DNA of 64,000 bases from Escherichia phage vB_EcoM_PTE-Eco09. The notes beneath the pieces are model-generated. The model saw only the letters and a list, made by a program, of their open reading frames with translations, had not been told where the DNA came from and did no database searches. A program made the position numbers and the translations under genes. Below are positions 18 to 17,851 of this stretch, in pieces. Location of the stretch: the sequence record PQ306574.1; one strand, 5' to 3'. Positions within the stretch are counted from its first letter, which is position 1; each line of letters begins with the position of its first letter.

Positions 18-3000
18 TTAGTCTTCCCAGATAAAGTCTACGGTACGAGTCAGATTATTGGCGATGATTTTAACATTACCAACCTTGATCCAGTCACGAA
101 CCGTCATAGAGTTCATTAAACCACCTTCTGCAACAACTGCCCCGATTTCCTGAGCGGTAGGCTTATTCTGTTTGGTGTAAATTTCACCCCATGCGGTCCA
201 TTGACCACCAGTACCGGAACGGATATAATGTTTATGAGTACCATCAGGGGACCAAAGCTGGGTAAGCCCGTCCGCGTCAGTACCCCATTGCATCAGAGTA
301 CCGTTTTTCTTCTCTGGATAAGTTTCTTTGATGTTCTGGGTAGTAACTCGCATATTCCAGAAACCGATGTTACCGATTGCCGGAGCGGTTGCCGCGCTAG
401 CTTCATGCTTAACAGAAACAATAGGCGCATTATCCATAGTCAGCTTGCCGACCATTGTATCGCCAGCATTCTTAACAAACCGACGGTTAAGAACTTCGTC
501 GGCGTTTCCTGCGTGTACGATCTGATATTTCTGTCCGGCGATCTCTGTAGTTAACGTTTGAGAACCTGCCTTGATGTTAACACTTCCACCGTGACCGATA
601 TTCAGCGTACCATCTGGGGAACGAGTCATTGCCGGATTAGACTGGTCAACAATGTATAAACCGCCTTGTTTCGCATACAGGTTACGACCTGCAATAAAGT
701 CTCTATATGCTGTCGCGTCGCCATTGTGTTTCATAGCAAAGGCGTAATGCTCAACGACTCCACCATCATTGATTTTACCGAAAGAGATAGCATCACTATC
801 AACAACTTGCGCTGTTCCAGTACCACCAACGATAATAGACCAAGAGTTTTTCATTCCTTCCGATGCGGTTGTGCCATGCAGAGTAATTCCGGTGTGACCG
901 TCAACTCCACGATCACCCAACACCAGATGACCATTACTCGGAACATCGGTCGAGTTCTTAGTCACAGACAGAGTTTCAAAGGAACCTGATTTTAAGCACT
1001 CTAAATCGCCCTTCACGTTAACGTTTTTATTAAACGTGTAATTGCTCTCTATGGTCTGATCAATGTCTCTACGCGCCCATTTAGAGGCCTCTACGTTACC
1101 CAATTTCAAACTATTCTGAGCGGTTGCCATCTTAGGTAAGAAATTAGCAAGTGCGTAGTTTAATCCTTTAGGGGTAACAGCAATTCCGTCATGCTGGTAG
1201 TTTCCTAGTTCTTGAGTAGAACCTTGCAGATTATCACCAACAAAACAGTTTTCCTGAGTAGCAACTTTCAAGAATCCACGACGCGCTTCGGTTGCTTTCC
1301 ATGTATCCTCTGTCTGAACAACATATTTGAAGTTCTTCGGAGAAATTGCTACATTGTCCATAATACCAGCCACGGTTTCGGCGTGAGTACCAACTCGGAT
1401 AATACCTTCTTTACCTTCGGTGGCCTTTTTGCCTTGCAGCTTTTTAGGCGTGATGATTGTAGTATCATCTTGACCAGCGTCAGTAAGCTGAGTAGTCGCA
1501 ACTTTAGCGACACCTTTTGTATCTTCGGTTGCATCCAGACCGCTGATCATGATACCTTGCCACAAATCACCAGTAAGGTTAAGCCCCTGAGTCGGATCTA
1601 CTTTCAAACGCTGTGCATTCTCAAAGAAGGTTTTAATCTTCAATGGGGTAGAAATGCGATCATCGTCACGACCTGCGTCAAATTCCGGCTGAGTTGCAAT
1701 TTCTGCTAAACCGTGTAAAGTTTCCGTTGCGCGGCGAGTATGCAACTTTTTAGGCGTGATGATATGGTTATCACTTTGACCTAAGTTTGTTTCTTCCTGA
1801 GTTGCAATTTCAGCGATACCAGTGCGCGATTCGGTAGCAGTACGTTTCGTTAGCGTGCGAGTCGTGATTAGTAAAGCATCTTGCGGGGTTGATTCTGTAG
1901 CCCCTTGCACTTCCGCGTCAGTTGCCAGATAGCCAACACCACGGGAAGTTTCGGTCGCCTTGACTTCGTTGATGTTTTGTGGCGTAACAATTTTAGCATG
2001 GTCGTTGATGTTATAGATCCCTGTACCAGCTTCGCCACGTCGAGCGGCAGCACTACCGCCAACCTGAACAATTTCAGCAATACCAGCGAGATCTTCGGAA
2101 GCGCGACGTTCTTCTAATTTCTTAGGAGTTATTGCGCGAGTATCGTCTAAACCTTCATTGGTTTCGTGCTGGGTTGCAATTTCCATCACACCACGACGGG
2201 CTTCGGTAGCAACACAGTCATTTAACTTTTTGGGTGTAACGATAACATCATCCAGGAAGTTGGAACCAGTATCTTGATGCGTTTCCGCTTGAGTCGCAAT
2301 GCGAGCAATACCGCGTCGAGTTTCGTTGGCTGTTTTATTAGACAGCATTTTTGGTGTTACAGCAACTTCGTCGCTAGGATTCTCTTCATGGTTTTTATTC
2401 GTTTCAGTCTGGGTAGCCAGTGCAATTACACCAACACGATCTTTACGAGTCGGATCTACTCGTTCTACAATCGGGTGAGCATGTGCCACCAACCAGTATT
2501 TCTTACCATCATCACCTTCTGAATAAGAGAACTCCAGATAAGGTACATAATCATTTGCAGCGTTGAAAGACAATTCAGACACTCCAGTCCATGTATCGGT
2601 CCCATTGAATGGGTACTCGCTACGCTTAGGAAACTGAACCATGTTTTTCTGCATAAGGATTTTTGTATCCTCTTCTGAGGTAATGATTCGGCAAGTCTGG
2701 TTTCCGTGCATATACTGCATAGAAACTTGAATACGATCACCCGGCTCGACATTGGTCGGCAGCGTCAGAGTAACATCACGACCACCAAATACAGCAACAT
2801 AGCTATTAGGTTGCAAGCGAGTGTCATTGATGATCGGTTTAAGACGAACAGACTGATCACCATCCCACAAACGCCATAAGTTTTCCGTCTTGTCAAAGAT
2901 GAATACACCATGACCGCTACGCTTACCGATAATCTCTTTTAGACCGGACGTGCCAATTGATTGTTCTTCTGCGTGCTCATGAACTTTAACCGTAACGTGG

Positions 3001-3758
3001 TTGGTTGCGGTTAATCCGTCAAGGTCTGTAGTCTGGATCATGTCGCCATTGTTGGCAAACTTAGGAAGCACTAAGGTAATATTACCCAACGAACTACGAC
3101 GAAATACCTGATCACCATTCTGCATTTGAATAGCATCAATCGCTGGCTGTGCGTACACACCGCGTGGCTCTGTTCCTGTCTGATAAACATGCCAACGATT
3201 ACGAACAAAGATGAAATAGTTCATTGCATACGGGGTAGTGCAATACCATTTTCGGTTGTACACATTACCGTTATGGTAAAACTCATGTCCTGTACTCAAA
3301 AACGATAATTCGTTAACACCACACTTGCCACCGATATCTTTTACTGTTATAGTGTCTCCCTCTGCTGGTTTAGTTGGCATAGAGAAAGTCAAGTTTGCAA
3401 ATTGACCATCTGCTGCGATATAATCACCAGACTGTAAAGGAGTATCACCGGAAGTTGCTGCAATATAATCCCAACGTGGGTCCGTGCGCAGTGCTTGCCA
3501 TTTAGTCGGGTCAAAATCACCTGCTGGCTTTGTGATATCTTCTTTTGCATAATACGGACGGTTTTGATAGATTGTAGTTCCGTATTGATCATAACCGCGA
3601 GTTGTGTCATACTGAGTAATGCCATTATGGTAATTGAAAAATTCAACGTTGACCGCATCCGTTGATGTGTTTTTATCTGCGTATGCTACATTGACGACCT
3701 TTTCATTACCAGCGTCAAAGCCAAATGTGGCCTTGAAATGTTGAGAAAAATCTGCCAT
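18..3758 (-). CDS. 34: long tail fiber proximal subunit (gp34-like)
   Basis: 1246-aa ORF; motifs IGGKxGVN, LPKFANNGD, ENLWRLWDGD, VQFPKRSEYP and C-terminal ...NVKIIANNLTRTVDFIWED match the T4 gp34 pattern as recalled; divergent from rnh as in T4. Confidence 0.85.
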   Translation of the reverse strand: MADFSQHFKATFGFDAGNEKVVNVAYADKNTSTDAVNVEFFNYHNGITQYDTTRGYDQYGTTIYQNRPYYAKEDITKPAGDFDPTKWQALRTDPRWDYIAATSGDTPLQSGDYIAADGQFANLTFSMPTKPAEGDTITVKDIGGKCGVNELSFLSTGHEFYHNGNVYNRKWYCTTPYAMNYFIFVRNRWHVYQTGTEPRGVYAQPAIDAIQMQNGDQVFRRSSLGNITLVLPKFANNGDMIQTTDLDGLTATNHVTVKVHEHAEEQSIGTSGLKEIIGKRSGHGVFIFDKTENLWRLWDGDQSVRLKPIINDTRLQPNSYVAVFGGRDVTLTLPTNVEPGDRIQVSMQYMHGNQTCRIITSEEDTKILMQKNMVQFPKRSEYPFNGTDTWTGVSELSFNAANDYVPYLEFSYSEGDDGKKYWLVAHAHPIVERVDPTRKDRVGVIALATQTETNKNHEENPSDEVAVTPKMLSNKTANETRRGIARIATQAETHQDTGSNFLDDVIVTPKKLNDCVATEARRGVMEIATQHETNEGLDDTRAITPKKLEERRASEDLAGIAEIVQVGGSAAARRGEAGTGIYNINDHAKIVTPQNINEVKATETSRGVGYLATDAEVQGATESTPQDALLITTRTLTKRTATESRTGIAEIATQEETNLGQSDNHIITPKKLHTRRATETLHGLAEIATQPEFDAGRDDDRISTPLKIKTFFENAQRLKVDPTQGLNLTGDLWQGIMISGLDATEDTKGVAKVATTQLTDAGQDDTTIITPKKLQGKKATEGKEGIIRVGTHAETVAGIMDNVAISPKNFKYVVQTEDTWKATEARRGFLKVATQENCFVGDNLQGSTQELGNYQHDGIAVTPKGLNYALANFLPKMATAQNSLKLGNVEASKWARRDIDQTIESNYTFNKNVNVKGDLECLKSGSFETLSVTKNSTDVPSNGHLVLGDRGVDGHTGITLHGTTASEGMKNSWSIIVGGTGTAQVVDSDAISFGKINDGGVVEHYAFAMKHNGDATAYRDFIAGRNLYAKQGGLYIVDQSNPAMTRSPDGTLNIGHGGSVNIKAGSQTLTTEIAGQKYQIVHAGNADEVLNRRFVKNAGDTMVGKLTMDNAPIVSVKHEASAATAPAIGNIGFWNMRVTTQNIKETYPEKKNGTLMQWGTDADGLTQLWSPDGTHKHYIRSGTGGQWTAWGEIYTKQNKPTAQEIGAVVAEGGLMNSMTVRDWIKVGNVKIIANNLTRTVDFIWED

Positions 3759-3792
3759 TATTGGGTCTCCTGTTATAATATGAAATTATTTA

Positions 3793-4374
3793 TTGTGTGA
3801 GGTGTTTGTTGTGGCAAAAACAAAATTTTGGGATATCGAGACACAGAAAGCGATAAAAGGTAGATTCTATCATGTCGATGGAATATTATACCATTTAAAG
3901 GATTCTGTAGCTGCTGGATTCCGAAAAGAAGGGTCCATATACAAAAAAGGTGATGTGGTAAGGGTATGTCTCCATAAAGAAGGATATTTATACTTTACAT
4001 TTTACAACAATGGTCATAAACTTAATCTGTTTGTACATAGAGTTGTCTGGTTTTTAGAGTATGGTACTCAGGTTGAACGAATAGATCACATAGACCAAGA
4101 CAAAACTAACAATAGACCGTCAAACATGAGAGAAGCAACCGAACAGCAAAATCAGTTTAACGTCTCAAAGAAAAAGGCTTGCCATAGCAAATATAAAGGT
4201 GTATCATTATCACCAAGCAAGAAAAAGCCGTGGAAGGCGTATATTGTTATCAATCGAAAGAATATACATCTAGGATACTTTGAGACAGAAGTTGAGGCGG
4301 CTAAGGCTTATGACCGTGCAGCACATGAAATAGTTGGCGAGTATGCTTATTTAAATTTTCCAAAAAGAGGATGA
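3793..4374 (+). CDS. HNH homing-endonuclease-like protein with AP2-type DNA-binding domain
   Basis: HNH-like block (IDHIDQDKTNNRPSNMRE) followed by AP2-like block (KPWKAYIVINRKNIHLGYFETEVEAAKAYDRAA); no in-frame ATG at 5' end, probable TTG/GTG start (3793/3802/3811) after SD GAGGTG. Confidence 0.55.
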   Translation: MCEVFVVAKTKFWDIETQKAIKGRFYHVDGILYHLKDSVAAGFRKEGSIYKKGDVVRVCLHKEGYLYFTFYNNGHKLNLFVHRVVWFLEYGTQVERIDHIDQDKTNNRPSNMREATEQQNQFNVSKKKACHSKYKGVSLSPSKKKPWKAYIVINRKNIHLGYFETEVEAAKAYDRAAHEIVGEYAYLNFPKRG

Positions 4375-4380
4375 TATATT

Positions 4381-4566
4381 ATGGTTAAAGTTGATTTGTC
4401 AGAAGGTGCAAAATGGGTAGTTGACAGAATCCCTGATAAGGATTACAATTATTTCCGCGCCGAATTAAACAATGCAATTCTGCGAGTTATGGAGAAGTAC
4501 GGGTATGACCGTGAAGTATCTAACTCGTTTGGCGAATATGTTGTTGTGAGAGTGGAGAGAACTTAA
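4381..4566 (+). CDS. hypothetical small protein
   Basis: 61-aa ORF tightly packed between HNH gene and rnh, ATG start; no recognisable domain. Confidence 0.4.
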   Translation: MVKVDLSEGAKWVVDRIPDKDYNYFRAELNNAILRVMEKYGYDREVSNSFGEYVVVRVERT

Positions 4567-4568
4567 TT

Positions 4569-5516
4569 ATGACGTATAACCCATTTACAAAAACGACCGC
4601 TACACTTAATGATTTCTTCGATGATCCAGAAGATAAACTGCCGGAAGGTGTGCATTTGATTGATATGTCGCAGCTTATGATTGCTACTATCTCACATACC
4701 TTTAAACCGGAAGATCCTATTAATGAAGGTATGATCCGTCATCTTATCCTTGACACCATGCGTTATAATATGACAAAATTCAAAGAGCAATACCCAATTA
4801 CGGTACTTGCCTTTGATTCAAGCAAAGGTTACTGGCGACGTGATATCGCCCCTTACTATAAACGCAACCGTAAGGAAAAACGAGACGCAGATCCGCGTGA
4901 TTGGGAGATGATCTTTGCTGCGATCAATAAGATCACCGAAGAGTTTAAAGAGAACATGCCTTATCACGTTATTAAGGTTGACAAAGTTGAAGCGGATGAT
5001 ATAATCGCTGTATTAACTAAAAAGTTTTCTGTAGAAGGTCGCCAGGTGCTAATCAACTCCGGCGATGGTGACTACACACAGTTGCACAAATACAAAAATG
5101 TGAAACAGTGGGCACCAGTACAGAAAGCGTGGAAGAAATGCAAATATGGTAGCCCTTACAAAGACCTTATGGTAAAATGTGTTAAGGGTGACGCAAAAGA
5201 CGGTGTAGCTTCTATCAAGTGCCGTAGTGATTTCATTATCTCACGACTGGAAGGAGAACGAGCTAAACCAATTGCAACCAAATGGTTAGAGCAAATTTTC
5301 GATGCCGAAGATCCAAAGTCTTTGATGACAGAGGAAGAAGCACGACGCTTTGACGAAAACCGCGAACTTATTGATTTTGAATTTATTCCTGATAACATCG
5401 AATATGAAATTTTGTTAGCATGGGAAAAATCTAAACCAGCACCACGCGGTAAAATTTATAACTATTTTGTAACAAATGCGTTAGTTAAAATGTTGCAGAA
5501 AATTGGTGAGTTCTAA
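4569..5516 (+). CDS. rnh: RNase H (5'-3' exonuclease / flap endonuclease)
   Basis: 315-aa ORF; strong similarity to recalled T4 RNase H (YWRRD..YYK.NR, MPY..., EADD.IAVL.KKFS.EG, GDGD(Y/F)TQLHKY.NVKQW, IPDNI, PPRGKIY.YFV). Confidence 0.9.
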   Translation: MTYNPFTKTTATLNDFFDDPEDKLPEGVHLIDMSQLMIATISHTFKPEDPINEGMIRHLILDTMRYNMTKFKEQYPITVLAFDSSKGYWRRDIAPYYKRNRKEKRDADPRDWEMIFAAINKITEEFKENMPYHVIKVDKVEADDIIAVLTKKFSVEGRQVLINSGDGDYTQLHKYKNVKQWAPVQKAWKKCKYGSPYKDLMVKCVKGDAKDGVASIKCRSDFIISRLEGERAKPIATKWLEQIFDAEDPKSLMTEEEARRFDENRELIDFEFIPDNIEYEILLAWEKSKPAPRGKIYNYFVTNALVKMLQKIGEF

Positions 5517-11144: not shown

Positions 11145-11414
11145 ATGAAAGTCGGTATTATTCAATTATGGACGGCTACCAGTGAAAACTACGCAGTAGC
11201 CGTAGATTATTACGGTTTACAATATCTCTATGATGAAGCGAGCGCATCATGGCTTCCTGTGCAAGAAAATAGCGATATCTCAAGACCTGCTACTATATTC
11301 GACCGTGGCGTTGTCTTTATCGATATTGACGAGACAGTAGCAAAACTGCGTAAGAAAGCAATCAACAAGAAAAAGGTGATGTGGGATGAAAGAATATTTG
11401 AAACTATTGCGTGA
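11145..11414 (+). CDS. hypothetical protein (frd-td intergenic ORF)
   Basis: ORF with ATG at 11145 overlapping td start; no recognisable domain. Confidence 0.35.
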   Translation: MKVGIIQLWTATSENYAVAVDYYGLQYLYDEASASWLPVQENSDISRPATIFDRGVVFIDIDETVAKLRKKAINKKKVMWDERIFETIA

Positions 11415-12606
11415 TGTTCTCGATAATGGCTGGCCTCGTGAAGATCGAACGGGGGTAGGTACGCTCTCTAAATTCGGCGCAGAGATGCGAATTGACTTAA
11501 GCAAGGGTTTCCCATTACTGACCACTAAAAAGATGGCTACAGCCTCTGTAATTGGCGAATTGCTATGGTTTATGGAGGGATCACTTGACCGCCGTCGCTT
11601 ACAGGAAATTACACGCGGTAAGTTTGACGAAGAAGCCTTCGACATTTGGCGCGGCAACTGTCTTGATATGAAAGAAAAGAATCCTTTGCGATTCAATGGT
11701 TATAATGTCGGCAATATGTATGGTATGGCGTGGCGACGCAAACCGATTCATCCACACGGTGAAATCAAAATTAAGCGCGTTAAGAGCAAATATACACATA
11801 CATTTAAGCACCCGTGGGTAGAAGACTTTACGCCAACCAATGAAACAGAAGACCGTTTATGTGCTATCTGGCGTGGTATGCGTTATGAAGAGTTTGATTA
11901 TATTCTGGTAGCAGACCACTGGAAGACTCAATCTAATTTTGTTAATGATGCATATTGCTTGTGGGGATTCCAGGAATGGGTAGATGATGGTTATTTCGGT
12001 TATCTGCTTGATAGTGATTATCTGGGTGGGGATATTATAGCACCGGATACCACGATGTTTGTTAGTATGGACGTAGACACATCAAGCACTAAAGACGATG
12101 AAGAATATGTCTATCGCCCGAAGATTTGGGAAGACCAGTTACAAAACGTGATCGAACAAATTAAAAACAATCCAACGGATCGCCGGATCATTATTGACTC
12201 ATGGAACGTACAAGGAACACATAATGCTGTATTAGGTGTATGTCATCCTTTCGTGCAATTCTACGTCAATGAAGGTAAACTGTCTTGTATGTGGTTTCAG
12301 CGAAGCGTAGACAGCTTTTTAGGCTTGCCCTTTAACGTCGCCAGCTATGCGCTGTTAACTCACATCATAGCGAAAATGTGTGATCTTGAGGTAGGAGAAC
12401 TGATTTTCTCTGGTGGAGATACTCACATTTACAAAAACCATTTTGATCAAGTCATGGAACAGTTAAGCCGTGTTCCGTTTGATAAACCAACAATTGAGTT
12501 GCCGGAATTTAAATCTTTAGATGAGGTATTGACAAAGACTCCGAAAGACTTTAAAATTCACAACTATCAAAGCCATCCAGCGATCACCGCTCAAATGGCA
12601 GTATAA
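11386..12606 (+). CDS. td: thymidylate synthase with large in-frame insertion
   Basis: Canonical ThyA blocks (DRTGVGT, FPLLTTKK, ELLWF, DRRIIIDSWN, CHPFVQFYV, LSCMWFQRSVD, FLGLPFNVASYALL, GDTHIYKNH) but 406 aa versus about 264-286 aa for typical enzymes. Confidence 0.9.
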   Translation: MKEYLKLLRDVLDNGWPREDRTGVGTLSKFGAEMRIDLSKGFPLLTTKKMATASVIGELLWFMEGSLDRRRLQEITRGKFDEEAFDIWRGNCLDMKEKNPLRFNGYNVGNMYGMAWRRKPIHPHGEIKIKRVKSKYTHTFKHPWVEDFTPTNETEDRLCAIWRGMRYEEFDYILVADHWKTQSNFVNDAYCLWGFQEWVDDGYFGYLLDSDYLGGDIIAPDTTMFVSMDVDTSSTKDDEEYVYRPKIWEDQLQNVIEQIKNNPTDRRIIIDSWNVQGTHNAVLGVCHPFVQFYVNEGKLSCMWFQRSVDSFLGLPFNVASYALLTHIIAKMCDLEVGELIFSGGDTHIYKNHFDQVMEQLSRVPFDKPTIELPEFKSLDEVLTKTPKDFKIHNYQSHPAITAQMAV

Positions 12607-12674: not shown

Positions 12675-14918
12675 ATGATTAAAAATGTTGTTAAGTCTTC
12701 CGGTCTGACTGTTCCGTTTGAAAAAGAAAAAGTAATGAAAATTCTGGAAGCGGCAGCCGAAGGTCATAACGTTGATCCATATGAATTGTTTGATATGGTT
12801 GAACCACTTCTGACAGAAGGTATGTCTACCAATGATATCCAGAAAGTATTGATTAAGGTCGCCGCAGATAACATCACGGTAGAAACACCCGATTATCAAT
12901 ATGTAGCAAGTAACCTTGCAATGTTCGCGCTTCGTAAATCAGTATACGGTCAATTCCAACCTATTGATTTTTATAGCCATATTGAGCGTAATATTGCAAC
13001 CGGAAAATATGATCGCGAAATTCTGCAAAAATATTCCCGTGAAGAAGTGGAATATCTGGAGAAATTCATCGACCATAAACTTGATTTTAAAATGACCTAT
13101 GCTGGTGCGATGCAGTTAAAAGAGAAATATCTTGTTCAGGATCGCAGCACTAAGAAAATCATCGAAACACCGCAATTTGCGTATATGCTGATCGGTATGT
13201 GCTTGCATCAAGAAGAGACCGAAAATCGACTTGAACATGTGATTGATTTTTATAATGCGGTTGCGAATAAGCAAATCTCTCTGCCTACTCCGATTATGGC
13301 AGGTGTGCGTACCCCAACACGCCAATTTAGTTCGTGTGTGGTGATTGAAAGTGATGACTCATTGCAGGGTATTAATGAAACCGCAAATGCAATCATCAAG
13401 TATATTAGCAAGCGTGCTGGTATCGGTATCAACGCTGGCATGATTCGCGCGGAAGGATCTAAGATCGGGCATGGTGAAGTTCGTCATACTGGAGTTATCC
13501 CATTCTGGAAACATTTTCAGACTGCCGTTAAGTCATGCTCACAAGGCGGTATTCGTGGCGGGGCGGCGACTCTCTATTACCCAATGTGGCATTTAGAGTT
13601 TGAAAGTCTGATTGTGTTAAAGAACAATAAGGGGGTGGAAGATAACCGCATTCGTCATCTTGATTACGGCGTACAGATTAATAACCTGATGGTAGAGCGA
13701 TTCCTTAAACGGGATTACATTACTCTGTTTAGTCCAGATGTTGCAGGTGGCTTGTTGTGGGATCTATACTTCCGAGATGAGGAAGGTTTCCGCCAGCTTT
13801 ACGAAAAACTGGAAAAAGATCCGAGTGTTCGTAAAACTCGTGTTAAAGCCGAAGACCTGTTTTTAGCGGTGGCAATTGAACGTTTTAACACTGGTCGAAT
13901 CTACCCAACGTTCACAGACAACATGAACAATCACGGGGCGTTTATTCGTAATGTAGCACCGATTAAACAATCTAACCTGTGTTGTGAAATTGCTCTGCCA
14001 ACAAAACCGATGGGTCGTGATGATTCAGAGATCAGCCTATGCACTTTGGCAGCATATGTTTTAGGTAATTTCGATATCGAAAATATGGAAGAAGTAGAAC
14101 GCATTGCTATGGTTATGGTGCGTGCACTTGACAACCTGTTAGATTATCAGGATTATCCTGTAGAACAAGCTCTGACAGCCAAAAAACGTCGCTCTCTGGG
14201 TGTTGGTGTGACTAACTTTGCATCGTATCTAGCAGATAATTTCTTCACATATGAAGACGCTAGCGAGTTTACGCATAAAACGTTTGAACGCTTGCAATAT
14301 GCTCTGATTAAGGCTAGTGTGCGACTGGCTAAAGAGAAGGGTGCTTGCGAACTGATGCACGAAACACGCTATGGTCGCGGTGAACTTCCTATCGACTGGT
14401 ACAAAAAGACAGTAGATGAACTGGTTGATCCGGTGTATGAGATGGATTGGGAAGAACTGCGCGAAGACCTGAAAAAATATGGCATTCGTAACAGTACGCT
14501 TTCGGCGCTGATGCCCTGTGAGTCATCTTCTCAGGTGTCTAACAGCACAAACGGTATTGAACCGCCTCGCGGGATTGTATCGGTTAAAGGATCGAAAGAA
14601 GGGCAATTTAATCAGGTTATTCCGAACGTAGAGAATAATGCTGATGTTATTGACCTGCTTTGGACACTGATCAAGAAAGGTAACAAGCCCTATCTGACAC
14701 TGGCAGCGATCATGCAGAAGTTTGTAGATCAGGCGATTAGTTCCAATACATCCTATGATCCAAGCACTTATAAGACTGGTAAAGTCGATATTGCTGATGT
14801 GTTAGATGATATGTTGTTCGCTCAACATTACGGTCTGAAAACCCTGTATTATGCGAACGTTCGCGACGGTGCAGATGGTACGGAAGACGCTAGCGAGTGC
14901 TCATCTTGCAAGCTGTAA
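12675..14918 (+). CDS. nrdA: aerobic ribonucleotide reductase large subunit
   Basis: 747-aa ORF with class I RNR alpha features and C-terminal Cys pair (ECSSCKL). Confidence 0.95.
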   Translation: MIKNVVKSSGLTVPFEKEKVMKILEAAAEGHNVDPYELFDMVEPLLTEGMSTNDIQKVLIKVAADNITVETPDYQYVASNLAMFALRKSVYGQFQPIDFYSHIERNIATGKYDREILQKYSREEVEYLEKFIDHKLDFKMTYAGAMQLKEKYLVQDRSTKKIIETPQFAYMLIGMCLHQEETENRLEHVIDFYNAVANKQISLPTPIMAGVRTPTRQFSSCVVIESDDSLQGINETANAIIKYISKRAGIGINAGMIRAEGSKIGHGEVRHTGVIPFWKHFQTAVKSCSQGGIRGGAATLYYPMWHLEFESLIVLKNNKGVEDNRIRHLDYGVQINNLMVERFLKRDYITLFSPDVAGGLLWDLYFRDEEGFRQLYEKLEKDPSVRKTRVKAEDLFLAVAIERFNTGRIYPTFTDNMNNHGAFIRNVAPIKQSNLCCEIALPTKPMGRDDSEISLCTLAAYVLGNFDIENMEEVERIAMVMVRALDNLLDYQDYPVEQALTAKKRRSLGVGVTNFASYLADNFFTYEDASEFTHKTFERLQYALIKASVRLAKEKGACELMHETRYGRGELPIDWYKKTVDELVDPVYEMDWEELREDLKKYGIRNSTLSALMPCESSSQVSNSTNGIEPPRGIVSVKGSKEGQFNQVIPNVENNADVIDLLWTLIKKGNKPYLTLAAIMQKFVDQAISSNTSYDPSTYKTGKVDIADVLDDMLFAQHYGLKTLYYANVRDGADGTEDASECSSCKL

Positions 14919-14926
14919 AATAAGTG

Positions 14927-14955
14927 TTGACGCGGGGAGAAATCCCCGCTATAAT
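14927..14955 (+). promoter_or_regulatory. PeSL-type early promoter (stem-loop in spacer)
   Basis: TTGACG 14927-14932, spacer CGGGGAGAAATCCCCGC (palindrome), TATAAT 14950-14955. Confidence 0.6.
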
Positions 14956-14986
14956 ACAACCATCAAAAACAAGTGAGGATTTTATT

Positions 14987-15154
14987 ATGACCAAATTAAA
15001 ATGTGTTGCTGTAGATTTTGAGCTAGCTGATAGCTTTGTTGTTGGTGATGAATATGATGCTCGACATGATGGGACTTGCTACTACGTCGAGGATGAATAC
15101 GGTGTAGAATGGGCGATTCTTCCTGATGATAAATGTTTTGAGGTTGTCGGATAA
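14987..15154 (+). CDS. hypothetical small acidic protein
   Basis: 55-aa ORF after PeSL promoter and SD GTGAGGA. Confidence 0.4.
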   Translation: MTKLKCVAVDFELADSFVVGDEYDARHDGTCYYVEDEYGVEWAILPDDKCFEVVG

Positions 15155-15330
15155 TGGCTACTGTATGGTTATTGATTGCAATAAGCAATTCAATGTATAA
15201 TTACGGAAATATGTCAAGCATTGAGTTTGCAACAAAGCAGGATTGCGTTAAAGCTCGCGAGATTATCCGCGAAGACAATAAACGCTTTATGAATCTATAT
15301 TGCGTTGAAAAACAAAAGGTGAACTAATGG
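15154..15330 (+). CDS. hypothetical small protein with N-terminal hydrophobic segment (paralog 1)
   Basis: MATVWLLIAISNSMYNYGNMSSIEFATKQDC...; start overlaps upstream stop. Confidence 0.3.
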
Positions 15331-15494
15331 CTACATTATGGTTATTGCTTTCCGTTAGCGTAGGCGTATATAATAAAGGAACTGTTACCAGCGTAGAGTT
15401 TTCATCATATCAAAATTGTTTTGAAGCTGTGCAGGAATTGCAGCAGGATAGCGAAATAAACAGAAATACTAAGTTCTTTTGTGTTAAAAAGTGA
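15327..15494 (+). CDS. hypothetical small protein with N-terminal hydrophobic segment (paralog 2)
   Basis: MATLWLLLSVSVGVYNKGTVTSVEFSSYQNC...; tandem paralog of previous ORF, start overlaps its stop. Confidence 0.3.
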   Translation: MATLWLLLSVSVGVYNKGTVTSVEFSSYQNCFEAVQELQQDSEINRNTKFFCVKK

Positions 15495-15502
15495 TAGTGA
15501 GG

Positions 15503-15562
15503 TGAATTAATCCTTCTTCTGGATACCTGATAAATAATGGTATACAGAAAAGAGGATTAATT
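15503..15562 (+). promoter_or_regulatory. inverted repeat sequestering the RBS of the downstream HNH gene
   Basis: GAATTAATCCT (15503-15513) pairs with AGGATTAATTC (15552-15562); 3' arm contains SD GAGGA, ATG at 15564. Confidence 0.5.
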
Positions 15563-15563
15563 C

Positions 15564-16211
15564 ATGAACTTACAAAAACTACATGACGCAATCATAGAAA
15601 AAGCAAAGACGAGAGGAACCGTTGAAGGGTATAAGGAAACACATCATATTTTACCGCGATCTATGGGTGGCGGTGATGAAGTTGATAACCTGATTGAGTT
15701 GACAGCAAAAGAACATTTCGTGATTCATCATCTGCTAGCAAAAATTCATGGTGGACCTATGGCACAAGCATTTGGTATGATGTGTTTAGCAAAAAATGCG
15801 AAGACCAATAAAAGAGATTATATTGTTTCGTCTAGGGTATATGAACAAGCTAGGGTACTTATCTCTGAACAAAGAAAGGGCAAACCTATGAAAGAAGAAA
15901 CGCGAAGAAAGATTAGCGAATCTTCGAAAGGTGTGTTGAAATCAGAAGAGACAAAAGCTAAAATGCGTAAGCCAAAAACAAAGGAGCACGCGTTAAACAT
16001 TTCAAAAGCTAGAATGGGCAGTAAAAATCCTATGTTTGGGAAACCATCGCCAACTAAAGGAATACCACATAGTGAGGAAATGAGAAAGCTGATTGCACAA
16101 AGGACAAAGGAAGCAACAATGGCAGATCCTTGTCCGCATTGCGGTAAAATTACCAATAAAGGCAATTCTCTACGATGGCACTTTGATAACTGTAAAATGA
16201 GGAATATGTGA
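15564..16211 (+). CDS. mobE: HNH homing endonuclease with NUMOD3-like repeats (mobE-like position)
   Basis: HNH motif (THHILPRSMGGGDEVDNLIELTAKEHFVIHH) and repeated K/R-rich NUMOD-like motifs; located between nrdA and nrdB as T4 mobE. Confidence 0.7.
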   Translation: MNLQKLHDAIIEKAKTRGTVEGYKETHHILPRSMGGGDEVDNLIELTAKEHFVIHHLLAKIHGGPMAQAFGMMCLAKNAKTNKRDYIVSSRVYEQARVLISEQRKGKPMKEETRRKISESSKGVLKSEETKAKMRKPKTKEHALNISKARMGSKNPMFGKPSPTKGIPHSEEMRKLIAQRTKEATMADPCPHCGKITNKGNSLRWHFDNCKMRNM

Positions 16212-17378
16212 ATGGGAAATACGGTATTTAATCGTGAACACGTTGATATTATGAATGAACCGATGTTTCTGGGCAGCGGTTTAGGTATCGCTCGTTATGA
16301 CATTCAGCGTCATCAAGTATTTGAAGAATTAATTGAAAAATCTCTGTCATTTTTTTGGCGCCCCGAAGAAATTTCACTTGCAACCGACCGCATTCAATAT
16401 CTTAATATGGGTGACGTTGAAAAGCGTTTCTTTACTGAAAACTTGAAGTATCAGACATTACTTGATTCTATTCAAGGTCGCGCACCGTCCGCAGCATTTG
16501 GTCCAATTGTATCTGATCCAACTCTCGATACATGGTTGCAAACATGGACATTCAGCGAAACGATTCATAGCCGAAGCTATACACACATTATGCGTAACTG
16601 TTTCATTGATCCGGCTAGTGAGTTCGACCAGATCATCGATAACCCTGCTATCATGAAGCGAGCGGAATCTATCGGGAAATATTATGATGATGTTCTTTAT
16701 TGGATTCGTAAGTATGAGAATGCAAAAGAAGATCTCCGCTATTGGGAAGAACGAGACGACCAGACAGCATTAGATGATGCAAGAAGATTTTTTGAAGATA
16801 CAAAACGAGATCTGATGGCTTCGATTTATCTGTGTGCACACTGCGTAAATGCACTGGAAGCAATCCGTTTTTATGTGTCCTTTGCATGTACTTTCAGCTT
16901 TGCCGAACGTGGTTTACTGGAAGGTAACGCGAAGATCATGAAATTTATTGCGCGTGATGAACAACTTCACTTAAAAGGAACACAATACATTATTCGTCAA
17001 TGGCAAACGGGGGTTGATGGTGATGAGTGGAAACAGATTGCGGAAGAACTTGAAGGCGAAGCAACGAAAATCTTTCTGGATGTTGTCGAGCAAGAAAAAG
17101 AATGGGTAGACCACCTATTCGCAATGGGGGCAATTCCTAACCTGTCACCGGAAATTCTGAAAACCTATGTAGAATACCTGGCAGATTCCCGTATGCGTGC
17201 TGCCGGACTGAAAAGCCCGTTTAGTGTTCGTCGTCATCCGTTACCGTGGATGCGTAAATGGTTGAACTCTGACGAAGTACAGAATGCAGCGCAGGAAGTA
17301 GAGATTATGTATCTGGTATCTCAGGTTAATACCGATTTAACAGACGACGACTACAACCGATTCGGGAAATATCTATGA
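16212..17378 (+). CDS. nrdB: aerobic ribonucleotide reductase small subunit
   Basis: 388-aa ORF with class I RNR beta di-iron/tyrosyl-radical-type fold features; position after nrdA. Confidence 0.9.
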   Translation: MGNTVFNREHVDIMNEPMFLGSGLGIARYDIQRHQVFEELIEKSLSFFWRPEEISLATDRIQYLNMGDVEKRFFTENLKYQTLLDSIQGRAPSAAFGPIVSDPTLDTWLQTWTFSETIHSRSYTHIMRNCFIDPASEFDQIIDNPAIMKRAESIGKYYDDVLYWIRKYENAKEDLRYWEERDDQTALDDARRFFEDTKRDLMASIYLCAHCVNALEAIRFYVSFACTFSFAERGLLEGNAKIMKFIARDEQLHLKGTQYIIRQWQTGVDGDEWKQIAEELEGEATKIFLDVVEQEKEWVDHLFAMGAIPNLSPEILKTYVEYLADSRMRAAGLKSPFSVRRHPLPWMRKWLNSDEVQNAAQEVEIMYLVSQVNTDLTDDDYNRFGKYL

Positions 17379-17851
17379 TATATTTTGTCGATTTAGATTT
17401 TACGATCACAGATCCAACGCATCGACTAGCAAAGATGCCAACCGAAAATCTTGATAAAGTCGAGTCATGGATCGAATATAACAAAGCATGTGGGGGAGAT
17501 TCCCCCATTTACGATGTAATTCGTGTTATTAATGCTCTTTCCGACAACGGGCATTTGATTTACATCCTCACAGGACGAAGTTCACATGCTTACATGGAAA
17601 CAATTGATTGGTTAATTTCTAACGGGGTGTGTTTTGATAAAATCTTTATGAGAGGCCGTACCGATTCCCGTAAAGACTATCACATCAAATTAGAGGTAAT
17701 TAAATCCTTTGATAAAGATGAAGTTGTCGGAGTCTTTGAGGATAACCCAGAAGTGATTAAAGTTTTGCGTGAAAATGGTTATCGTGTCTTTGACGTAGGA
17801 AATCACAAAGATAAGACGCGAGCGGATATTGCAAATCACGGTCATGATTAA
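17375..17851 (+). CDS. HAD-superfamily phosphatase (nucleotidase / 3'-phosphatase-like)
   Basis: N-terminal DxDxT motif (FVDLDFTIT), later ILTGRS and EDNPEV blocks typical of HAD hydrolases; start overlaps nrdB stop. Confidence 0.55.
   Translation: MIYFVDLDFTITDPTHRLAKMPTENLDKVESWIEYNKACGGDSPIYDVIRVINALSDNGHLIYILTGRSSHAYMETIDWLISNGVCFDKIFMRGRTDSRKDYHIKLEVIKSFDKDEVVGVFEDNPEVIKVLRENGYRVFDVGNHKDKTRADIANHGHD

Follow-up and report, generated by a model that had tools for sequence, protein, structure and literature searches.

The 64,000-nt stretch of DNA analysed here (the window) belongs to a phage of the genus Krischvirus, the RB49-like T4-type coliphages, as judged from megablast matches of 95-99% identity, and the segment that follows its nrdA gene (12675..14918) raises the question what two very short open reading frames, placed back to back, could contribute to such a phage. 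ORF A (15154..15327, + strand) starts with ATG and comprises 58 codons, i.e. 57 amino acids and a stop, and ORF B (15327..15494, + strand) starts with ATG as well and encodes a paralog of 55 amino acids followed by a stop. A first-pass annotation had described the pair at 15154-15494 as tandem paralogous, small, membrane-like ORFs located between nrdA and an HNH gene. With regard to their presence and position, to the N-termini MATVWLLIAIS and MATLWLLLSVS and to the overlapping stop and start codons, this description was accurate, as the TAA of ORF A (15325-15327) and the ATG of ORF B share one base within a TAATG junction. Absent from it were the existing annotation of both genes in RB49, a third coupled ORF upstream and the variable nature of the HNH gene.

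That the two ORFs are paralogs is borne out by BLASTP, which aligns the proteins over their full length with 38% identity and 75% positives (E=6e-16), and by their common PHROG, since both match the phrog_5579 profile end to end (ORF A: residues 2-53 on profile 1-52/52, E=6.8e-24; ORF B: residues 2-55 on profile 1-52/52, E=5.7e-24). Moreover, the window proteins A and B are 100% identical to RB49ORF232c (RB49p232) and RB49ORF231c (RB49p231) of phage RB49, for which UniProt holds the entries Q7Y3I7 and Q7Y3I8. The first-pass observation, correct as it is, consequently concerns genes that have long been annotated as hypothetical in RB49 and about 50 relatives; we find no difference from these entries or from the PHROG, and none of them carries a function. 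A Shine-Dalgarno motif is present for both ORFs, as for the coupled ORF upstream, the one for ORF B being AAGGTG, 5 nt ahead of the ATG. In 11 Krischvirus genomes, pN/pS amounts to 0.065 for A, 0.21 for B and 0.20 for the upstream ORF, the variable sites of all three being mostly third codon positions, and A and B are thus under purifying selection. These low ratios, together with the homologs found in unrelated phages, show that A and B are more than chance ORFs. They are real genes and true paralogs that belong to an existing family and can be lost.

The gene order in Krischvirus is td, nrdA, U, A, B, nrdB, phosphatase, in which ORF U (14987..15154, + strand; RB49p233) encodes an acidic 55-aa protein and is the first of a coupled trio, its stop codon overlapping the ATG of ORF A in another TAATG. 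All three members of the trio (p233, p232 and p231) are annotated as "hypothetical protein" in RB49. ORF U has a Shine-Dalgarno sequence GAGGA 8 nt upstream, a net charge of about -10 and three Cys; it matches phrog_16302 of unknown function (E=9e-42) and weakly DUF7244, and has no homology to A or B. Just past the nrdA stop, a sigma-70-type promoter-like site (14927..14955, + strand; TTGACG, 17 nt, TATAAT) agrees with the consensus at 11/12 positions, which is the best match of the region, and is conserved in phages FL20 and G37-3. It is probably the early promoter of a compact unit made up of U, A, B, the homing endonuclease where present, and nrdB, and we infer from the layout that the unit would be transcribed from this site and its translation coupled through the TAATG overlaps. 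Within the promoter spacer, 14 nt past the nrdA stop, the sequence also reads as a 7-bp G+C-rich hairpin with a GAAA loop (GCGGGGA-GAAA-TCCCCGC; 14932..14949, + strand), and the predicted RNA fold of 14919-14990 reaches -21 kcal/mol (z=-3.9). The record of Ec_Makalu_003 labels this hairpin 'terminator'; there is no clear T-run at 14932-14949, and an Rfam scan of the region gave no match of note.

ORF U is broken in FL20 by a frameshift and in G37-3 and JEP8 by stop codons, and its tblastn matches are split or N-terminally truncated in FL37, AV108, FL04, FL38 and kaaroe, which could reflect decay or sequencing errors. A functional link between U and A through co-loss, as FL20, G37-3 and JEP8 might suggest, was rejected, because A is intact in FL37, FL04, FL38 and kaaroe, where U looks disrupted by tblastn only.

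As to the downstream side, the similarity to most Krischviruses ends at 15511 and returns in nrdB (16212..17378). The segment in between is an inserted homing-endonuclease cassette (15512..16211, + strand) whose HNH gene at 15564..16211 matches Pfam NUMOD3 (2.7e-9) and the homing endonuclease family phrog_655 (1.8e-55). This 215-aa HNH+NUMOD3 gene sits exactly at the nrdB start codon in the window and in SSG23, SFHK24, phiS, JSE, AV108 and FL15, and the first nrdB codons differ (MGNTVFNREH versus MSVFNREH in RB49). A different gene of 179 aa, annotated as HNH_3 endonuclease in G5211, occupies the same slot in G5211 and G37-3, and most relatives have no endonuclease ahead of nrdB, which in most of them starts 16 nt past ORF B. 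The gap ahead of nrdB is a polymorphic homing-endonuclease site, and the cassette lies outside the A/B unit but forms its downstream border in this genome. The placement between nrdA and the HNH gene is therefore correct as a position, although the HNH gene, being a variable insertion, is no fixed neighbour. The idea that A and B form part of the endonuclease cassette was likewise discarded, as most relatives with A and B lack the endonuclease and JSE, AV108 and FL15 show the reverse.

Free-standing HNH endonucleases are known to insert in the gap between nrdA and nrdB (PMC2988022). Phage T4 offers a parallel, with the short non-essential ORFs nrdA.1, nrdA.2 and nrdB.1 and the mobE slot in a like position among td, nrdA and nrdB, and one-base stop/start overlaps occur in the T4 td-nrdB region, too (PMC2988022). 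Homology of A and B to nrdA.1, nrdA.2 or nrdB.1 was considered and rejected, the family HMM yielding only noise (E>3) in the T4 locus.

Natural variation indicates what the phages can do without. Among the 58 Krischvirus records that carry ORF U, both A and B are present in 52; two records hold one A/B recombinant copy and four hold none. The latter represent three phages, JSE (two records), AV108 and FL15, in which the gap extends precisely from the ATG of ORF A through the stop of ORF B, while U, the homing endonuclease and nrdB, as well as nrdA, are retained. In FL20 and G37-3, an exact one-unit deletion has its junction in the shared 5' sequence TAATGGCTAC..TATGGTTATTG, and the remaining gene has the A-type MATV start followed by B sequence. 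As natural phages without A and B exist, the two genes are not needed for laboratory propagation and are dispensable. In JEP8, ORF A (positions 528-701 of the retrieved locus) carries C31F, i.e. a change of an invariant cysteine, in addition to the premature stop in U; this locus could be decaying, or the record could contain a sequencing error.

Given this arrangement, it might be argued that A and B matter mainly in cis, namely as short coupled frames that pass ribosomes on from the promoter to nrdB and tune its expression, with the peptides themselves being functionless. Such a relay would fit the chain of one-base TAATG overlaps and the distance of 16 nt from B to nrdB in most relatives. 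It would, however, leave unexplained the strong purifying selection that acts on the protein sequence, the occurrence of the same protein family in many unrelated gene contexts and its confident predicted fold, and nrdB is retained in the natural variants devoid of A and B. We hence regard this explanation as extremely unlikely.

What did not hold of the first-pass description is the term membrane-like, which hydropathy, conservation and an AlphaFold2 model contradict. Taken at face value, it would make A and B peptides that are secreted or anchored in the membrane, such as factors of superinfection exclusion or lysis timing; the hydrophobic N-terminus would be the anchor or the signal peptide, and the cysteine pair of the family would form a periplasmic disulfide. 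The N-terminus is strongly apolar over a window of 11 residues (Kyte-Doolittle about 2.2), two invariant cysteines would suit an oxidising compartment, and a Foldseek search of BFVD gives, at rank 35 (E=0.12), one neighbour under the label 'putative secreted protein'. However, the apolar run extends over only about 9-11 residues, compared with the 18-20 or so of a transmembrane span, and the highest 19-residue Kyte-Doolittle mean is 0.61 for A, 1.07 for B and at most 1.43 over 50 family members, none of which (0/50) reaches the transmembrane threshold of 1.6 or above. In 42 of the 50 members no Lys or Arg precedes the hydrophobic core, which often begins at residue 2-3, and these consequently have no signal-peptide n-region; no Cys that could belong to a lipobox is found near the N-terminus. 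Signal peptides are usually poorly conserved in sequence, whereas the near-invariant residues W5 and L7 fall inside the hydrophobic N-terminal segment.

The same segment is confidently modelled as a strand of a sheet. The AlphaFold2 model, built on a shallow alignment of 32 diverse homologs, has a pLDDT of 87.9 (about 87 for residues 1-10) and a pTM of 0.68 and places beta1 at residues 3-11, beta2 at 20-25, the helix at 28-41 and beta3 at 46-54 of ORF A; it supersedes a poor model (pLDDT 57) obtained from the two paralogs only. According to this model, the hydrophobic N-terminus is a strand of the domain, and the computation supports a beta-beta-alpha-beta fold with no transmembrane segment. 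Since hydropathy, charge pattern, conservation and model all point in the same direction, the membrane or signal-peptide reading was rejected; we consider it quite unlikely that A and B act as anchored or secreted peptides. A Foldseek search of the PDB returned nothing below E=0.2. The best solved neighbour, SbtB (PDB 6MMQ; PII-like/ferredoxin-like alpha+beta), reaches a TM-score of 0.75 normalised to the query, but at E=0.24, with about 10% identity and many gaps, the match falls short of significance and amounts to a generic resemblance among small alpha/beta proteins, with no evidence of kinship. In BFVD, the protein matches best with its own paralog and with further small phage proteins that share its fold and are likewise uncharacterised.

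The family to which A and B belong extends well beyond Krischvirus. An exhaustive search of 1.84 billion representative proteins gave 48 profile matches at E<1e-3, about 45 of them 50-76 aa long; three long repetitive matches are spurious, one member of 113 aa has a C-terminal extension, and a metagenomic one of 44 aa (P0004) is an A/B hybrid. C31 and C50 (ORF A numbering) are invariant in an alignment of 50 sequences, W5, L7, G18 and F25 are conserved in at least 90% of them, and a second set of 32 sequences has the same pattern; the spacing between the cysteines is 19-21 residues in A and B and varies over the family. By tblastn, members were found in Drexlerviridae (JeanPiccard, Motto, Henu7), in the Autographiviridae phage SDFMU_EhYP and in the jumbo Erwinia phage Hallingskeid, and metagenomic members sit on further phage-like contigs. 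The family comprises proteins of about 50-70 aa in approximately 15 phage settings. Neither A and B nor 32 relatives matched Pfam; searches of NCBIfam and of PDB sequence profiles gave no match, nor did the anti-phage defence profiles of PADLOC at E<=1, and a literature search returned no paper that mentions the A/B ORFs or PHROG 5579.

Copies in tandem or in pairs are not restricted to the locus studied here. An unrelated high-GC phage contig (L016) carries two diverged tandem copies with a GTGA stop/start overlap, and another (L010) has two family copies 4.3 kb apart. In a rough neighbour-joining tree, the Krischvirus A and B proteins group with the single copy of a T4-like metagenomic phage (L029), which places the duplication within the T4-like phages, and the two L016 copies are not sisters.

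A more specific clue could come from the neighbouring genes, which were inspected by hand in about 15 settings. In the T4-like metagenomic contigs L029 and L030, the order is frd, td, a split nrdA, the family gene and nrdB, with a NrdA 84% identical to that of the window; the L029 phage has a single PHROG 5579 copy between nrdA and nrdB and no ORF U. The nrdA gene of both contigs (L029, positions 1753-4940) is interrupted, and thereby split into two parts, by the gene of an I-HmuI/NUMOD-like endonuclease, an arrangement that a review describes for Aeromonas phage Aeh1 (PMC2988022). Contigs L008 and L009 encode NT5C and ThyX, then, further on, the family member and a 131-aa protein followed by nrdB/nrdA; in L017 the family gene comes after nrdA, HNH, nrdB and two further genes; and in L010 it stands between ThyA and DHFR, with nrdA and glutaredoxin further along. 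In Tempevirinae, a homolog of the window phosphatase gene immediately precedes the family gene, and a dNMP kinase is encoded close by. The window gene in question (17375-17851), which comes after nrdB, encodes a 158-aa phosphatase ("polynucleotide kinase"), and its homologs in T1-like Tempevirinae (L006, 1971-2501; L007, 1932-2504) are 39-43% identical and joined to the PHROG 5579 gene by a stop/start overlap. The phosphatase gene is thus a second recurring neighbour of the family besides ribonucleotide reductase (RNR).

Settings without nucleotide-metabolism neighbours are also numerous and place the family gene between an ATPase and DNA polymerase, between DNA ligase and primase-helicase, next to NinG, or in an RNA ligase region, a Dam/DUF551 region, an rIIB region, an SU10-like early region or a jumbo-phage tRNA region. 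An IMG/VR scan with a narrower alignment added two loci, neither of which has nucleotide-metabolism neighbours. About two thirds of the family contexts lack such a neighbour and RNR is missing from many of the host phages, which leaves the case for a specific link to this enzyme weak. The family thus represents an accessory gene of early or DNA-metabolism regions, with a link to nucleotide supply that is suggestive but non-exclusive.

This bears directly on the possibility that A and B specifically serve deoxynucleotide synthesis, as a two-cysteine redox protein or a carrier of metal or Fe-S. By analogy with bacterial nrd operons, a four-cysteine A/B dimer would then service ribonucleotide reductase or thymidylate synthesis. 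Small cysteine-containing proteins encoded beside bacterial nrdA/nrdB are known, namely the 2Fe-2S ferredoxin YfaE and the redoxin NrdH. Such a role would agree with neighbours such as nrdA/nrdB, ThyA/ThyX, DHFR and glutaredoxin in at least three to four phage lineages, with an invariant cysteine pair of which one member lies at a helix N-terminus, and with tandem or paired copies in three lineages. The likeness to YfaE and NrdH is nevertheless one of analogy only, as A and B resemble them neither in sequence nor in profile, lack a CXXC or four-Cys motif and are predicted to fold differently; no thioredoxin, glutaredoxin, NrdH, NrdI or ferredoxin model matches, and the Cys-Cys spacing varies. 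Furthermore, most contexts are without RNR, the T1-like and lambdoid carriers having none within the fetched flanks, and JSE, AV108 and FL15 keep nrdA and nrdB yet lack A and B. Overall, a dedicated helper role seems very unlikely to us. Its most concrete version, a four-cysteine A/B heterodimer with a metal/Fe-S centre or a redox dithiol that services phage or host deoxynucleotide synthesis, for example by upkeep of the NrdB cofactor or by reduction of NrdA, is a long shot; if it were true, PHROG 5579 would represent a new minimal accessory class of the RNR/thymidylate pathway across many phage groups.

We return to the reading that we consider fairly probable, namely that A and B are non-essential, soluble cytoplasmic paralogs that form dimers or dock onto a partner and act as modulators in early infection. 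Both genes would be translated, as accessory genes that arose by tandem duplication within one family of small proteins (PHROG 5579) and then diverged, and each product would fold into a cytoplasmic, soluble mini-domain of some 55 residues in the order beta1-beta2-alpha-beta3, in which WLLIAIS is predicted to be a buried strand and no membrane anchor. In beta1 (V4-I10) and beta3 (L48-V51), apolar side chains would point to both faces. As both strand faces are apolar and the single helix covers one of them, we infer that the second face of the sheet is buried by a subunit or partner, most likely, as far as can be told from the sequence, through dimerisation or through docking on a partner protein. 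A dimer would presumably be an A/B heterodimer in the present phage and a homodimer where a single copy exists. The invariant cysteines at the helix N-terminus and in the middle of beta3 most likely serve as a structural element or as a redox/metal site; given how the strands and the helix follow one another, C31 in the first helical turn and C50 in mid beta3 would lie at similar height, which makes a contact between them geometrically plausible. As for their likely role, the two proteins would attach to some other protein early in infection and modulate it, possibly in nucleotide supply or DNA metabolism, near whose genes the family is often found.

The present importance of these genes is small, as they have been hypothetical since the RB49 genome and were already grouped in PHROG, and we regard the finding as an ordinary one of low to moderate interest. 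What the analysis adds is the correction to a soluble beta-beta-alpha-beta domain, the definition of the family by an invariant Cys pair and by a range that takes in Straboviridae, Drexlerviridae and Autographiviridae as well as a jumbo phage and temperate-like contigs, the natural change in copy number through recombination between paralogs, and a recurring but non-exclusive nucleotide-metabolism neighbourhood. A function, if found, such as a partner protein or a metal or redox site, would annotate one of the many conserved mini-proteins of phage early regions across numerous genomes together.

Two further observations concern individual records. In the Enterobacter phage SDFMU_EhYP, a 56-aa family member (family HMM E=2e-23; positions 2501-2671 of the retrieved locus) is absent from the annotation and lies within a 1.1-kb annotation-free stretch between the AAA ATPase and DNA polymerase genes; it is a gene missed in the public record. 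In the window itself, the thymidylate synthase at 11386-12606 has 406 aa, with 412 aa in L029 and 295 aa for the ThyA of L010, and from these lengths it seems to contain an internal insertion of about 110-120 residues.
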